IMG/VR virus record: IMGVR_UViG_2541047874_000006
Source: a virus
Taxonomy: Duplodnaviria; Heunggongvirae; Uroviricota; Caudoviricetes
Reading direction: 5' to 3' (one strand)
Length of the DNA stretch: 17,810 bases
Position numbers and translations under genes: made by a program. The notes beneath the pieces are model-generated. The model was not told the origin of the DNA, did no database searches, and saw nothing but the letters and a program-made list of their open reading frames with translations. Position 1 is the first letter of the stretch. Each line of letters starts with the position of its first letter. Below, in pieces: positions 11,119 to 15,575 of the stretch.

Positions 11119-12224
11119 CCGAACCCGATTTTATTGACCGCGATCCTGCGCAAATTACCAGCGAGATGATTGCGCAGTACGAAGATGCCAGCGGCAAAAA
11201 GCTCTACCCGGCACAGGCCGAGCGGTTGCTGATTGACCTTTTTGCCTATCGTGAAAACCTTGTACGCATCGCCATTCAGGAAGTGGCGAAACAGAATCTG
11301 GTCGCGTATTCCCGCGCGCCAATGCTGGATTATTTAGGTGAGCTGGTGGGCGTTCACCGCTTACCTGCACAACCGGCAAAAACCACGTTGCAGTTTTCGG
11401 TAGCCAGTAAGAATCGAAATAACATTCTAATTCCACAAGGAACACGTGCCAGCGCCTCTGACAGCGTGATGTTTGCTACCGATGAAGATGTTCTGATTCC
11501 GGCGGGAAGTTTGCATATAGCCGTTCCCGCCACCAGTCTGGCAACAGGCGAAGCGGGCAATGGCTGGCAGCCTGCACAGATTAGCGCCCTTGTTGACAGG
11601 ATTGGTTATTACGATATCAGCGTGACCAACCTGACGGCCTCAACCGGCGGCTGCGGTGAAGAGAGCGATGACGCACTACGCCAGCGGATCCAACTGGCGC
11701 CGGAAAGTTTCAGCAATGCGGGCAGCTATGGTGCCTACCGCTTTCATACGCTTTCCGTAAGCCAGTCGATTATTGACGTCGCGGTACTGGGGCCGGACGA
11801 AGGATTGCCAGAAGGCTGCGTGGAGATCTACCCGCTAACGCTGAATGGTCTGCCGGGCGTGGAACTGCTCGCGCAAATTGAACTGGAGGTTAGCAAGGAG
11901 AAAAAACGTCCGCTGACCGACAAAGTAAGTGCGAAATGCGCCGTTAGGGTGCCGTATGAAATCCGTGCGCAGCTCACACTGTTTACCACTGCCGATCAGG
12001 AGACAACGCTGGCTGCGGCGCGTAAAGCGATTAGCCTCTGGACGCAACAGCGGCAGAAACATCTGGGACAGGACATTGTGCCAAACCAGATAATCAAAGT
12101 GTTACAAGTCGATGGTGTCTATGACGTTGCGCTGAATATACCTACAAAACGTATTTTGCAGGCGCATGAGTGGGCGGAATGCACCGCGATAGACGTCACG
12201 ATTGCCGGAGTCAGCGATGGATAA
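11109..12224 (+). CDS. Baseplate J-like protein (Mu gp47 / P2 gpJ family)
   Basis: 371 aa; GGAGG upstream; position and size match baseplate J; overlaps both neighbours. Confidence 0.8.
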   Translation: MAIAEPDFIDRDPAQITSEMIAQYEDASGKKLYPAQAERLLIDLFAYRENLVRIAIQEVAKQNLVAYSRAPMLDYLGELVGVHRLPAQPAKTTLQFSVASKNRNNILIPQGTRASASDSVMFATDEDVLIPAGSLHIAVPATSLATGEAGNGWQPAQISALVDRIGYYDISVTNLTASTGGCGEESDDALRQRIQLAPESFSNAGSYGAYRFHTLSVSQSIIDVAVLGPDEGLPEGCVEIYPLTLNGLPGVELLAQIELEVSKEKKRPLTDKVSAKCAVRVPYEIRAQLTLFTTADQETTLAAARKAISLWTQQRQKHLGQDIVPNQIIKVLQVDGVYDVALNIPTKRILQAHEWAECTAIDVTIAGVSDG

Positions 12225-12582
12225 ATTGCTGCCGCCACCGCCGCTTGCCAGCGATGAGCGTTTTTCAACTCTGGCAAATATCGCTGCCGAGCGTTTTGCC
12301 CAACTCGATCTGACAGCGTTGATGGTTTATCTGGTAGACCTGGTTGATGCTTCGGCATTACCTGCCCTTGCAGAACAATTTCACGTTCAGGGGCTGGAAG
12401 GTTGGTTATTTACCACTGATGAACGGGAGAAGCGCGATTTAATTAAGCAAGCCATTGAGCTGCATAAATATAAAGGAACGATTTGGGCGGTACGGCGGGT
12501 GCTGGAAATACTTTCGCTACCAGGAACTATTTCAGAATGGTTTGAATATGGGGGGAAGGCTTATTTTTTAAGGTTGATATAG
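12202..12582 (+). pseudogene. Tail protein I-like (Mu gp48 / P2 gpI family), N-terminal part; frame discontinuity at a G6 run
   Basis: Probable start ATG 12217 (MDKLLPPPPLA, GGAG upstream). The frame ends at 12582 while the -1 frame is open from 12546 and continues as the next ORF. Possible frameshifted gene or two genes. Confidence 0.5.
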
Positions 12583-12587
12583 AGCTG

Positions 12588-12848
12588 GTGGATAAAGGCA
12601 TGGATGAAAACCTTTTCAATAATCTGGTAGAACTCATTCATGAATATAAAAACACACGTTCAAAACTGGAAGCATTAATTGTCTGGATCATTAACCAAAG
12701 TGCTATTCCTGTTATTGGCTGTGCACTTTATGGTGGTGAACTGACGACGGTTTTACCTTTCCAGATACGGGAAGTACAGCAAAACACATCAATCTATTAC
12801 GGAACAGGGCAATGGAGCCTTGAAATTACATCTATTTACCCGGAGTAA
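12588..12848 (+). CDS. Hypothetical protein, or C-terminal portion of the tail protein I-like gene
   Basis: 86-aa ORF in the -1 frame relative to the preceding gene; lower GC by eye; stop lies inside the RBS-ATG spacer of the tail fiber gene. Confidence 0.4.
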   Translation: MDKGMDENLFNNLVELIHEYKNTRSKLEALIVWIINQSAIPVIGCALYGGELTTVLPFQIREVQQNTSIYYGTGQWSLEITSIYPE

Positions 12849-12850
12849 TT

Positions 12851-14620
12851 ATGGATAATGAGTTTTATACTCTACTCACCGACAGAGGGATGGCAAAAAT
12901 TGCCAATGCTCTGGCGGATAAAAAACAGCTTCATCTACAAAAAATGGCTGTTGGCGACAGCGGAGGGCAATATTATGAACCCACCGTCCGCCAAACTAAA
13001 TTACGTCATGAAGTATGGCGTGGTGATTTAAATACATTAACAGTTGCGCCCAATAATCCTAACTGGTTAATTGCGGAACTTGTACTGCCCGAAAATATCG
13101 GCGGCTGGTATGTACGTGAAGTCGGCGTTTTTGATACTGACGGTGAACTCATTGCTATCGGTAAATTCCCGGAGTCGTATAAACCGCTATTACCCGGCGG
13201 CAGCGGTAAGCAAGTTTGCATTCGTCTCATTATGGAAGTTTCCAATACGACAGCGGTAACACTCACCGTTGACCCCAGTATTGTGCTGGCAACACGGGAT
13301 TATGTTGATTCGCAACTGGATGAACATGAACGTTCGACTAATCACCCTGATGCTACGTTATCGCAAAAAGGCTTTACGCAGTTAAGTAACGCCACTGACA
13401 GTGATGACGAAACCAAAGCGGCTACGCCAAAAGCGGTGAAAGCGGCGATGATTGAGGCACGAAATCATCGTCATACCTGGAGTCAGATTACTGATATTCC
13501 GGATAGTACGCTGACGCAAAAAGGGATTGTGAAGCTTAGTAACGCGATTGATAGCACCAGCACGACAGAGGCGGCAACACCGAGCGCGGTGAAGGCGGCG
13601 TATGACCTGGCGAATAGTAAGGCTGCGGGAAACCATACTCACCCATGGGGACAGATTACGGGTGTTCCAGACGGCACCCTGTCGCAAAAAGGGATTGTGA
13701 AGCTTAATAATGCGACGGATAGCAACAGTACGACGGAGGCGGCTACGCCGAGTGCGGTGAAAGCGGCGTATGACCTGGCAAATGGAAAGGCTGCAGGTAG
13801 TCATACGCACCCCTGGGGGCAGATTACGGGTATTCCGGATGGCACCCTGACGCAAAAAGGGATTGTGAAGCTTAGTAATGCGACGGATAGCAACAGTACG
13901 ACGGAGGCGGCTACGCCAAGTGCGGTGAAGGCGGCGTATGATAAAGCCTGTGAGGCATATAGCAGGATTAACAATTCCTCATTCCGCTTCTATACATCAA
14001 ATGGAACATTTACCGTGCCGACTGGAGTAACAGAAATACTTCTGGAAATGTCAGGCGGTGGTGGGGGCGGTGGTGGTGGGGCAATCGCCGGAGGCTCGAC
14101 AGTGGTACAACCTAAATTTGGACTAGGCGGCGGAGCAGGAAAACCTGGTGAAATTATAATTACTCCTCTCACAGTTAAACCCGGAGATATGTACTCCTTT
14201 ACAGTTGGGGCTGGAGGGGCTGGAGGGGCTGGAGGCACACAGGTAAGACCAGAGAGTGGTTCGACTTGGATTCCCAGAGATGAATTAGGACAAGCAGGTA
14301 TTCCTGGAGCGGCATCATATTTTTCCTCACTTACTGCTTCCGGTGGTGCTGGTGGGGAAGGAGGGAAAATAATAATTATCGACTCCCCGTACGCCAACTC
14401 AGTAGGAGAGGTTCCCAAAACATACTCCAGCAACGGTGAAACTGCAGTAAATACTCCTTATGGAAAAGGGGGATTGGGAGGAGCGAATAGTGATGGCCAA
14501 TCCGGCTCTGGTTATGGTGCGGGAGGTGGGGGAGGGGCTGGTTTAGGATCAACTTCGATAAACCACGCTGCCCGCAATGGCGGTCGTGGCTTGGGTGGTT
14601 ATATAAAAATTTTATGGTGA
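12851..14620 (+). CDS. Tail fiber protein with internal tandem repeats and a glycine-rich C-terminal domain
   Basis: 589 aa; N-terminus (MAVGDSGG...EVWRGDL...LIAELVLPENIGGWYVREVGVFD...FPESYKP) matches the conserved N-terminal domain of Mu S / P2 H / E. coli Stf fibers; four repeats of TL(S/T)QKGIVKLSNATDS..TTEAATPSAVKAAYD; C-terminal 190 aa rich in Gly runs. Confidence 0.85.
   Translation: MDNEFYTLLTDRGMAKIANALADKKQLHLQKMAVGDSGGQYYEPTVRQTKLRHEVWRGDLNTLTVAPNNPNWLIAELVLPENIGGWYVREVGVFDTDGELIAIGKFPESYKPLLPGGSGKQVCIRLIMEVSNTTAVTLTVDPSIVLATRDYVDSQLDEHERSTNHPDATLSQKGFTQLSNATDSDDETKAATPKAVKAAMIEARNHRHTWSQITDIPDSTLTQKGIVKLSNAIDSTSTTEAATPSAVKAAYDLANSKAAGNHTHPWGQITGVPDGTLSQKGIVKLNNATDSNSTTEAATPSAVKAAYDLANGKAAGSHTHPWGQITGIPDGTLTQKGIVKLSNATDSNSTTEAATPSAVKAAYDKACEAYSRINNSSFRFYTSNGTFTVPTGVTEILLEMSGGGGGGGGGAIAGGSTVVQPKFGLGGGAGKPGEIIITPLTVKPGDMYSFTVGAGGAGGAGGTQVRPESGSTWIPRDELGQAGIPGAASYFSSLTASGGAGGEGGKIIIIDSPYANSVGEVPKTYSSNGETAVNTPYGKGGLGGANSDGQSGSGYGAGGGGGAGLGSTSINHAARNGGRGLGGYIKILW
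13340..13960 (+). repeat. Four tandem coding repeats (153-168 bp period) inside the tail fiber gene
   Basis: CGCAAAAAG occurs at 13362, 13515, 13683 and 13851; copies 3 and 4 are nearly identical at the nucleotide level. Confidence 0.7.
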
Positions 14621-14624
14621 ACAG

Positions 14625-15230
14625 ATGACACGATATGCGTATTACCATCCGGTAACCTTTGAGGTTATTGACTGGATAGATGCAGCCTCTTTTACTGTGG
14701 AATTACCTGATTCAGTAATTCCTGTAGATGATGAGCAGTGGCAGTTAAAAGATAAACCATGCTGGATATGTCTTGACCCATTCAAAATTATCACCACACC
14801 ACCGCCGGGTGATTTTTACATCTTAGAGAATGATAAATGGGTATATGACAAAACATTATTTACCATTGCACTTGAGAATACCAAGGCACAGGTTACACAG
14901 GAAATAAAAAATCGACGTGATGAAATAACGGTAGATTACATCATCATCAACAACCATCACTTCCACAGTGATACAAATAGCCGTATCCAACAGCTCTCGC
15001 TCACTAAAATGGGAGCGGAGAAAAAAATCCTTCCAGGTTTAATGTGGAAAACTAAAAATAACGGTCTGATTGAGTTAACCAACGAAATCGCTTCCCAGTT
15101 TGAATCGGTAACAATGGATCACGATATGCGCCTGTTCGCCAACGCCCAGCGCCATATCGCGGCGGTGGAAGCTCTGGACGATATTCAGGCGGTGCTCGAC
15201 TACGACTACTCCACAGGCTGGCAACCATGA
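14625..15230 (+). CDS. Tail fiber assembly protein (Tfa; Mu gpU / P2 gpG family)
   Basis: 201 aa immediately after the tail fiber gene; AT-rich; conserved C-terminal region typical of Tfa chaperones. Confidence 0.75.
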   Translation: MTRYAYYHPVTFEVIDWIDAASFTVELPDSVIPVDDEQWQLKDKPCWICLDPFKIITTPPPGDFYILENDKWVYDKTLFTIALENTKAQVTQEIKNRRDEITVDYIIINNHHFHSDTNSRIQQLSLTKMGAEKKILPGLMWKTKNNGLIELTNEIASQFESVTMDHDMRLFANAQRHIAAVEALDDIQAVLDYDYSTGWQP

Positions 15231-15553
15231 GTAAAACCACTGTCTGGCTCGCTTGTTATAAGGGCCGAACAGAGCACCGTGGTATTGCCCGACTGGCTGA
15301 CTGGCTTACCCGTAAAATCACACGCGGTAGTTATTCCCACTGTGAATTAGCCGTTAAGCATGGTGAAAATAGTTACCTTTGTTACTCTGCATCACTGCGC
15401 GATCGCGGTGTACGCGAAAAGATAATGCCATTGCCAGCGGATAAGTGGGATATGCTGCCGCTCCAGGCCAGCCTTCAGGATGTGGAAACTTTTTTCCGTA
15501 AACATGATGGCAAAAAATATGACTGGCGCGGAGCATTAGGAGAGCCTGTTTAA
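15227..15553 (+). pseudogene. Gene truncated by IS insertion (5' portion; last three codons and stop supplied by the IS end)
   Basis: ATGA overlap with tfa; the ORF runs into the IS terminal repeat, which contributes residues EPV and the stop. The original reading frame resumes after the IS at 16865. Confidence 0.6.
15534..15541. repeat. Target-site duplication CATTAGGA (left copy)
   Basis: Identical 8-mer directly flanks both IS ends (15534-15541 and 16857-16864). Confidence 0.65.
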
Positions 15554-15575
15554 GATTCTGTGTAAATGCCTTTTC

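Follow-up and report, generated by a model that had tools for sequence, protein, structure and literature searches.

In the fibres that carry the phage tail fibre repeat PF03406 (gpH/K of phages P2 and 186, gpS of Mu, S of P1 and the lambdoid side tail fibres), the core of the repeat belongs to the proximal region or the shaft, as it does in the fibre studied here. A tblastn search detected this core in 288 phage records, among them phages 186, P1, fiAA91-ss, Stx phages and Yersinia phages. The only solved relative that could be found by sequence is Mu gpS, which has a single core (aa 107-153) without an HxH motif, whereas in our fibre and its homologues the core is iterated together with an HxH-containing linker as a strict 56-aa super-repeat of three to five units. 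One Yersinia phage fibre has such a linker (NHTHSWEQIT), but it occurs there once and is repeated here.

Some likeness is also found in gp37 of the T-even phages, where conserved short motifs with His residues are repeated and act as sites of recombination, through which segments are duplicated and the specificity of the adhesin is exchanged. This His-box-mediated process was reportedly described by Tetart, Krisch and co-workers (J Mol Biol 1996 and 1998). On the other hand, the gp37 case concerns virulent T4-type phages and experimentally selected duplications, while our evidence is comparative and the repeat family is different.

With regard to the HxH motif, R1/R2 pyocin fibres, T4 gp37 and P2 gpV have octahedral Fe sites made of six His residues (PMC6116203). 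Three HxH pairs create an Fe site on the fibre axis, which is thought to be a folding reference point or a stiffener (PMC6116203). An H-x-H in a homotrimeric fibre is a feature common to the T4 gp37 tip, the R1/R2 pyocin shaft, the P2 gpV apex and the fibre studied here, though our linker has no detectable sequence homology to these proteins, its metal binding is putative, and its HxH pairs follow a fixed 56-aa period, in contrast to the irregular spacing in the known iron-site fibres.

The initial annotation of our locus reported four tandem repeats in a tail fibre. This finding is correct but ordinary, because the repeats are copies of the well-known tail fibre repeat; the array is of a known kind and not a new kind of element. 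It consists of four PF03406 copies, of which units 1-3 are extended by an HxH-W-Q-I linker, and probably represents a recombining modular shaft of a trimeric fibre with putatively metal-binding HxH pairs.

Fibre gene and repeat array

The window, that is, the whole stretch of 17,810 nt that was analysed, has a tail fibre gene after the baseplate genes J and I (Baseplate_J, Tail_P2_I) and before a DUF4376 gene:

12851..14620, + strand: tail fibre gene, 589 aa (ORF list, translation, Pfam, PHROG)
12851..13300, + strand: N-terminal baseplate-docking domain, aa 1-150 (PF12571 Phage_tail_fib, E 4.9e-61, profile 1-150/150)
13943..14620, + strand: C-terminal glycine-rich domain, presumed receptor-binding (weak PF21722 Gly_rich_2 match)
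14625..15230, + strand: DUF4376 protein, 201 aa, likely a fibre assembly or accessory protein (PF14301, E 6.8e-13; PHROG tail families, E 1e-43)

Pfam thus read the fibre as PF12571, four stretches of PF03406 and weak Gly_rich_2. The fibre also matched PHROG tail and tail fibre families (best E 3.6e-187), and its E. coli homologues are annotated as 'tail fiber protein'. The earlier label of the array as a shaft is right, because the array lies between the PF12571 N-domain and the glycine-rich C-domain; judging from this domain order and the gene position, the array is evidently the fibre shaft. An AF2 monomer model built on a 24-sequence alignment was confident only in the C-domain (pLDDT mostly 63-96 over aa 370-589, with dips), for which Foldseek matched the Bxb1 tail tip, the Pam3 fibre (7ypx) and the glycine-rich domains of ALK/LTK. 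Since pLDDT was below 50 over the array and the N-domain, only the C-domain of the model is usable and it allows no structural conclusion on the repeats; the sole recurrent feature of the low-confidence array was a helix over PSAVKAAYDLA in every unit.

The array was confirmed as four in-frame coding units, all of which lie within the range 13340-13960 that had been proposed and which start at nt 13355, 13508, 13676 and 13844 (aa 169, 220, 276 and 332). Translation and motif location gave exactly the periods of 153, 168 and 168 nt noted before. The core of the unit is 33 aa (TLxQKGIVKLxNAxDSxSTTEAATPSAVKAAYD), and the linker is 23 aa, but 18 aa in unit 1:

13355..13507, + strand: unit 1, 51 aa, diverged core TLSQKGFTQLSNATDSDDETKAATPKAVKAAMI (63-65% DNA identity to the other cores) and short linker EARNHRHTWSQITDIPDS
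13508..13675, + strand: unit 2, 56 aa, core and linker LANSKAAGNHTHPWGQITGVPDG
13676..13843, + strand: unit 3, 56 aa, core and linker LANGKAAGSHTHPWGQITGIPDG
13844..13942, + strand: unit 4, core only, 33 aa (99 nt), without HxH linker; the C-terminal domain joins on at its end

Each of the four 33-aa cores aligns with the PF03406 profile from end to end, and the fibre scores 237.1 bits (E 7.4e-72, 4 stretches, best at aa 220-259 against profile positions 1-40 of 42), exceeding the curated gathering threshold of 22 bits. Four copies of a unit with HTH, W and Q had been described. The linker is indeed present in copies 1-3, though as HRH in copy 1, which is diverged and nearly invariant across homologues, but copy 4 has none. 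Similarly, the near identity claimed for the last two copies holds for their cores (94 of 99 nt identical, longest exact run 42 nt), copy 4 being the 99-nt core only.

The periodicity is clear by several means. Tandem Repeats Finder gave an array of period 168 that covers 13484-13941 with 2.7 copies, 87% matches and a score of 685, and a second repeat search gave 3 x 168 nt and a four-copy family at 153/168/168 spacing. In the self-comparison of 13340-13960, which had been proposed as a check, identity was 0.689 at lag 168 and 0.568 at lag 336, against a mean of 0.258 and a maximum of 0.344 at other lags, while the best in-frame lag never exceeded 0.450 in 500 codon shuffles. Full units 2 and 3 share 84.5% identity over 168 nt; 19 of their 26 differences are at third codon positions, a pattern that clearly indicates strong purifying selection on the units.

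Several steps would be combined in the favoured reading. The PF03406 core and the HxH-W-Q-I linker would form a 56-aa super-unit, and super-units would build the modular shaft of a homotrimeric fibre on a Mu/P2-type contractile tail. Unequal crossing-over or gene conversion between full-size units of 84-95% identity would add, remove and homogenise units, and the gain or loss of units would lengthen or shorten the shaft. The conserved last core would supply the homology at which the receptor-binding domain is swapped along with its chaperone. In the trimer, three copies of each HxH pair would coordinate a buried metal, probably Fe, on the axis with one site per unit, and this site would act as a folding register or stiffener.

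Exchange of the presumed receptor-binding domain

The sequence on the right of the array differs sharply among related loci, and an exchangeable cassette was delimited by comparison with E. coli EC9 (L002):

13951..14938, + strand: exchangeable cassette, fibre C-domain and first half of the downstream DUF4376 gene (identity to EC9)

Per 100 nt, identity to EC9 is 94-97% up to 13450, 83-92% over 13451-13950, 23-57% over 13951-14937 and 96% from 14938; beyond 13951 it falls from 86% to 57% or less. In 40 E. coli genomes, the megablast match breaks off at ORF nt 1085-1097, or window positions 13935-13947. Moreover, the last core is followed by different C-domains in three further loci or proteins (L004, L006, P0072), and homologues have at least four unrelated C-terminal sequences. 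These comparisons clearly mark the end of the last unit as the apparent left junction of a swapped receptor-domain and chaperone cassette.

This raises the possibility that the array is mainly a conserved homology anchor for such cassette swaps, with copy number and length incidental. The identity drop exactly after the last core and its recovery in the middle of the DUF4376 gene, the common end of the 40 genome matches, the unrelated C-terminal sequences and the presence of the PF03406 core in fibres of otherwise unrelated phages all speak for such a role. However, one core would suffice for it, and three to five units with an invariant HxH linker under purifying selection are left unexplained. 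We regard it as a real chance, though not the expected outcome, that anchoring is the main role; the anchor role itself is compatible with the modular shaft and does not exclude it.

Fibre diversification by a DGR or by an invertase (Gin/Cin/Min shufflon) was rejected since such genes are absent beside the fibre gene. The fibre is followed by DUF4376, a truncated 108-aa ORF, an IS256/Mutator-family transposase and RlaP, and Pfam detected no invertase or reverse transcriptase among these downstream genes. For engineering of fibres or tailocins with new specificity, the junction at about window position 13943 offers a natural splice point.

Copy number and recombination of the units

Repeat number was compared among relatives, as had been suggested, and it does vary. 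Among 121 proteins, 93 have four units, 21 have five and seven have three, and the spacing is always 56 aa. Variation occurs within species, E. coli having three (P0058) or four (P0003) and Salmonella three, four or five, and the E. fergusonii protein P0031 equals E. coli P0003 minus exactly one unit. A scan of genome contigs with the fibre returned six loci, including three-unit examples. On the other hand, of 47 complete E. coli genomes, 46 can be aligned without gaps across the four units, and in the 47th the match begins only at query nt 367. Copy-number differences were seen only between diverged alleles or species; the 46 four-unit genomes therefore point to slow evolutionary turnover by rare events. 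A hypervariable or phase-variable (contingency-type) locus was rejected because closely related isolates keep four copies.

Traces of exchange were also found inside the array. The linker of unit 2 is identical over 69/69 nt to linker 3 of the E. coli alleles L001/L002 but matches their linker 2 at only 60/69, and core 3 is closest to core 4 of L001 (93/99, vs 88/99 in register). The alleles that show this one-unit register shift are otherwise only 91-92% identical. Against the 98%-identical allele L011, 19 of the 62 differences are within 13609-13747, a patch of about 140 nt that looks conversion-like. Identity between units is 0.917 within a protein, vs 0.759 for the same position between lineages, whereas the N-domain is 0.90 between lineages, and no protein among 114 mixes linker types. 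As these comparisons make plain, the internal units are homogenised within lineages, though part of this may be due to a single unit having been amplified independently and not to continuing conversion. We infer recombination at the array, in line with the earlier suggestion that the repeats are substrates for a change of fibre length: the 56-aa steps between three-, four- and five-unit forms, the register shift, the patch and the homogenisation all agree with it. Such a fibre would evolve in a textbook manner, with a shaft changing by whole units and a conserved repeat marking the exchange point of the receptor-binding domain and chaperone.

Alternatively, the units may be static structural modules, and the copy differences the result of a few ancient duplications or deletions, with no recombination on a relevant time scale. 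The ungapped four-unit array of 46 of the 47 complete E. coli genomes fits this well. Moreover, units 2 and 3, with 26/168 mostly synonymous differences, are no recent duplicates, and the longest exact matches between copies are 24-42 nt. But static modules do not account for the 69-nt linker at another position in alleles that are 91-92% identical elsewhere, the clustered 19-difference patch between 98%-identical alleles, the three-, four- and five-unit forms inside a single species, or the linker types homogenised within lineages, so we consider this alternative improbable.

Copy number in the window or its relatives could also be an assembly artefact, a collapsed or expanded repeat, since the 168-nt period is near short-read length and several three-unit variants come from draft contigs only; in the initial annotation, the repeats were even predicted to collapse in short-read assemblies. 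This prediction was not supported. The same four-copy sequence is present in an isolate assembly and in a metagenome scaffold of independent origin, with no differences in 4.1 kb, and copies differ at least every 42 nt, the longest inter-copy match. Four units are kept in 46 complete E. coli genomes, three are on a 5.0-Mb Dryocola contig and five on chromosome-size Salmonella contigs of 4.7-5.05 Mb. Furthermore, of 18 truncated database proteins, 17 are cut at the C-terminus by contig ends, all past the whole array with breaks in the glycine-rich C-domain, and the remaining one (P0023) misses only its first 31 residues. An artefact is thus very improbable, and the weak point of assembly at this locus is the glycine-rich C-domain and not the 168-nt repeats. 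Finally, we give virtually no credence to periodicity arising from a gene on the opposite strand, where a 157-aa ORF (13382-13855) overlaps the array, or from a non-coding repeat element, because the antisense ORF has no Pfam match, the window has no Rfam match, and the plus-strand frame both concentrates the unit differences at third positions and is a high-scoring Pfam repeat.

A tail-only gene cluster

In E. coli, the homologous locus, between lysC and rluF/yjbD, is a tail-only cluster. A Mor-type activator gene is accompanied there by lysis genes (holin, transglycosylase) and by genes for the sheath, the tube, the tape measure, the baseplate, the fibre and the chaperone; genes for a capsid, a terminase, an integrase or replication were not found in it. 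In E. coli CH4796, the Mor end of the cluster directly adjoins lysC, and the fibre module at the opposite end is followed by RlaP, slipin, yjbD and rluF. Gene order is the same in the window, where Mor is at 1-348 and RlaP at 17019-17810. A megablast search of the phage collection returned only one unverified 6-kb Salmonella fragment, and no close complete phage there. The homologue of gpI in the window has a frameshift, and an IS insertion is located next to the fibre module. The locus resembles a decaying tail-only cluster of a tailocin-like kind and not an obvious complete phage. The cluster copy in this strain may be non-functional, and owing to the frameshift and the IS insertion the array here may no longer be under selection.

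R-type tailocins such as R2 pyocin likewise have genes for a contractile tail, lysis and regulation but none for a capsid, packaging, replication or integration, and this is the gene content of the present cluster. In contrast to R2 pyocin, the components are Mu/P2-like and not pyocin orthologues, and the copy here is damaged. A 'tailocin' has also been described from E. coli ST131, as a pyocin R2-like tail structure inside a conserved ST131 prophage (PMC9205054).

HxH linkers and shaft length

The three linkers each have one HxH motif:

13466..13474, + strand: motif 1, HRH, aa 206-208 (H206 and H208 invariant in the 24-sequence alignment)
13634..13642, + strand: motif 2, HTH, aa 262-264 (motif location)
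13802..13810, + strand: motif 3, HTH, aa 318-320 (motif location)

Outside that alignment, the homologue P0053 is an exception in unit 1, with Q in the first position (NQTHTW). From unit 2 onwards, H43, H45, W47 and Q49 are invariant among 60 distinct 56-aa units. A phmmer search with linker-core-linker against PDB sequences hit only the PF03406 core of Mu gpS, the HxH segment being without a solved homologue. By analogy with the known iron-site fibres, the HxH pairs of three chains probably bind metal on the trimer axis, and the buried ion is probably Fe.

A further, rather doubtful idea is that the 56-aa super-unit is a metal-clamped shaft module with one axial Fe/Zn site and a fixed length step each, so that gain or loss of units would act as a ruler matching the reach of chromosomal E. 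coli/Salmonella tailocin fibres to the depth of the target O-antigen or capsule. The natural series of three, four and five units provides a ready test of fibre length against target range. In the shaft of R2 pyocin, 70 residues span about 93 Å (PMC6116203); if the idea is true and the rise per residue is R2-pyocin-like, the step would be about 7 nm per 56-aa unit.

Repeat array in the fibre shaft

The fibre gene contains four in-frame units within aa 169-364 of its product, and their starts agree exactly with the four tandem coding repeats and periods of the initial annotation.

12851-14620, + strand: tail fibre ORF, 589 aa (ORF list and translation)
13355, 13508, 13676 and 13844, + strand: starts of units 1 to 4, located by motif (periods 153, 168 and 168 nt)

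Every unit opens with a 33-aa core (TLxQKGIVKLxNAxDSxSTTEAATPSAVKAAYD), followed in units 1-3 by a linker (18 aa long in unit 1, 23 aa in the next two) that contains H-x-H-x-W-x-Q-I-T, with PDG/S at the end; unit 4 is a core without linker and ends at 13942. Tandem Repeats Finder gave a period-168 array at 13484-13941 (score 685), and a second repeat search gave a 168-nt family and a four-copy family at 153/168/168 spacing. The periodicity was also evident in a self-comparison of 13340-13960, where identity at lag 168 was 0.689 versus a mean of 0.258 at other lags, and none of 500 codon shuffles exceeded 0.450. The description of the last two copies as nearly identical holds for the cores of copies 3 and 4 (94/99 nt) but for no other scope: cores 2 and 3 share 86/99 nt, core 1 shares 62-64/99 nt with the other cores, and units 2 and 3 are 84.5% identical in DNA at full length. 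The coding frame of the array is the + frame, in which third codon positions hold 19 of the 26 differences between units 2 and 3. A family search with the antisense ORF overlapping the array gave no match, and an Rfam search of the window found nothing.

In Pfam, the cores match PF03406, 'phage tail fibre repeat' (237 bits, four stretches), aa 1-150 match PF12571, an N-terminal fibre/collar domain, and aa 382-580 weakly match the glycine-rich domain PF21722. The gene lies 3' of Baseplate_J and Tail_P2_I homologues and 5' of a DUF4376 gene, whose product matches PHROG tail families. Because the array is flanked by a baseplate-docking domain and a distal domain, it is the shaft; its earlier placement there is thus supported by domains and neighbouring genes alike. 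The repeat family is already known and the fibre is annotated as such in databases: the PF03406 core occurs in 288 phage records, with fibres of 186, P1, fiAA91-ss, Stx phages and Yersinia phages, and the HxH linker is present once in one Yersinia phage fibre, as NHTHSWEQIT. The only solved relative by sequence, phage Mu fibre gpS, has a single core (aa 107-153), whereas the window's fibre has four.

Copy number and probable recombination between units

Among 120 close homologues from the database search plus the window, three units were found in 7 proteins, four in 93 and five in 21, with an invariable spacing of 51, 56, 56(, 56) aa. P0031 of E. fergusonii (533 aa) equals P0003 of E. coli (589 aa) minus exactly one unit, and Salmonella 641-aa forms equal the 581-aa form plus one unit, save small differences in the glycine-rich C-domain. 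Superficieibacter and a Dryocola contig of 5.0 Mb also have three-unit arrays, and five-unit forms are found on chromosome-sized Salmonella contigs (4.7-5.05 Mb). The comparison of repeat number among relatives proposed initially has two sides: the number varies from three to five across homologues but is stable at four in 46 of 47 complete E. coli genomes, which align ungapped across all four units, so that unit turnover is slow. Slippage is also seen on a smaller scale in the array: in the fibre of Dryocola sp. BD626, within aa 169-283, 7 aa are duplicated in tandem inside one unit (AAYDKAN AAYDKAN), which is thereby 63 aa long.

Apart from a shift in register, two E. coli alleles, L001 and L002, are 91-92% identical to the window overall: the window's linker 2 agrees with their linker 3 at 69/69 nt but with their linker 2 at only 60/69, and its core 3 best matches their core 4 (93/99, versus 88/99 in register). 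Unit variants have thus moved by one position with the total still four. Moreover, the allele L011, which lies at the same chromosomal locus, encodes a fibre protein 98% identical to the window's. Over 4.1 kb the two sequences show 62 differences, 19 of them clustered in 13609-13747 within the array, a patch that appears conversion-like. Mean unit identity is 0.917 inside one protein and 0.759 for same-position units between the two linker lineages (0.90 for the non-repeated N-domain), and none of 114 proteins mixed both linker types. The copy-number series, register shift, conversion-like patch and homogenisation within lineages support, at the sequence level, homologous recombination between units, by unequal exchange, gene conversion or both. 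The prediction that the repeats are recombination substrates altering fibre length was borne out by these comparisons.

On the other hand, the prediction that the array will collapse in short-read assemblies was not supported. The four-unit sequence is identical in the isolate assembly GCA_000459855.1 and an independent metagenome scaffold (0 differences in 4.1 kb), four units are present in complete genomes, and the longest exact match between copies is 42 nt. Of 18 truncated entries checked, 17 are cut at the C-terminus, and all of these span the array and end within the glycine-rich C-domain (aa 408 or 524-605); the other, P0023, lacks only its first 31 residues.

The C-domain has short DNA repeats of its own (14053-14079 and 14207-14235; a GGT/GGC run, and GGGGCTGGA x3.2), which vary in copy number between alleles (9-nt indel versus L011); the lengths of homologues are 586, 589 or 592 aa. 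Where draft contigs of database homologues break, they do so in this domain, at its Gly-run or its Gly-rich C-terminal end, and not within the 168-nt array. AF2 modelled the domain (13943-14620, aa 365-589) with confidence, and in Foldseek the model resembles the fibre of cyanophage Pam3 (7ypx), tail-tip proteins of mycobacteriophage Bxb1 and the TNF-like, glycine-rich domain of the human receptors ALK/LTK.

The last core as a junction

Identity to the E. coli allele EC9, per 100 nt, is 94-97% up to 13450, 83-92% over the remainder of the array (13451-13950) and 23-57% from 13951 to about 14937, and returns to 96% from 14938 on; the diverged stretch comprises the fibre C-domain and the first half of the DUF4376 gene. 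In forty E. coli genomes the megablast match ends at ORF nt 1085-1097 (window 13935-13947), and C-terminal sequences beyond the last core are unrelated in Phytobacter, Dryocola and the homologue P0072. These results mark the last core as the left breakpoint of a receptor-domain/chaperone cassette exchange.

Proposed model of the shaft

The family, position, unit constraint, quantised copy number, register shift, homogenisation and junction are established here. The units would stack as segments of a homotrimeric shaft, whose length would change in fixed steps when full-size units, 84-95% identical, recombine. The conserved core may supply the homology by which domains are swapped.

Across 60 distinct full-size units, the HxH pair is invariant, and so are the W and Q that follow it at a distance of two and four residues. 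HxH pairs also occur in R1/R2 pyocin fibres, T4 gp37 and P2 gpV, where three of them together bind iron in an octahedral six-His site on the trimer axis; a role as stiffener or as reference point in folding has been proposed for this site (PMC6116203). By analogy, we give about even chances that the pairs of the array form a like iron site, one per unit. The AF2 monomer model has pLDDT < 50 throughout the array, and a PDB sequence search found no solved homologue of the linker. In the R-pyocin shaft, 70 residues span about 93 A (PMC6116203); with a similar rise per residue, each unit would add roughly 7 nm.

Tailocin-like gene cluster

The window lies within E. coli GCA_000459855.1, and the fibre gene is housed in a tail-only cluster of about 15-17 kb.

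1-348, - strand: Mor, at one window limit
15542-16856: IS256/Mutator-family element, 1315 bp (transposase 15576-16784, - strand)
17019-17810, - strand: RlaP, at the other window limit

At the homologous locus of E. coli CH4796 (L001/L012), a Mor-family activator directly adjoins lysC and is followed by holin, SLT transglycosylase, lipoprotein, Gp37-family protein, sheath, tube, tape measure, baseplate genes, fibre, DUF4376 and one further gene, with RlaP/slipin/yjbD/rluF at the other edge. This cluster contains no head/capsid, terminase/packaging, integrase or replication genes, a tail-only gene set shared with R-type tailocins; its architecture is R-type tailocin-like, not that of a complete prophage. 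Two features are mildly novel: a super-unit that bears HxH and is strictly periodic, and, at a chromosomal tailocin-like locus, a natural series of three, four and five units.

The gpI homologue (Tail_P2_I, 12202-12848) is frameshifted by a T6 run at 12564-12569, versus T7 in L011, and is split into ORFs of 126 and 86 aa (intact 210 aa in L011). The frameshift is also present in L010, the independent metagenome scaffold, and the short run is likely an inactivating mutation, or a slippery run. The IS256/Mutator-family element has terminal inverted repeats (GAGCCTGT...) and is flanked by a duplicated 8-bp target (CATTAGGA at 15534-15541 and 16857-16864); it cuts the gene after DUF4376 from 151 to 108 aa and is absent from L010, L011 and L001. 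Because of the frameshift and this truncation, the cluster may be decaying in the window's strain.

At the protein level, Salmonella, Citrobacter and related genera have abundant homologues of the fibre. The 581-aa Salmonella homologues P0064, P0084 and P0092 come from serovars Typhimurium, Derby and Goldcoast, which coincide with those positive for the qPCR marker STM4200, 'putative phage tail fiber' (PMC6201931). From the coinciding serovars, this diagnostic target may be the orthologous fibre.
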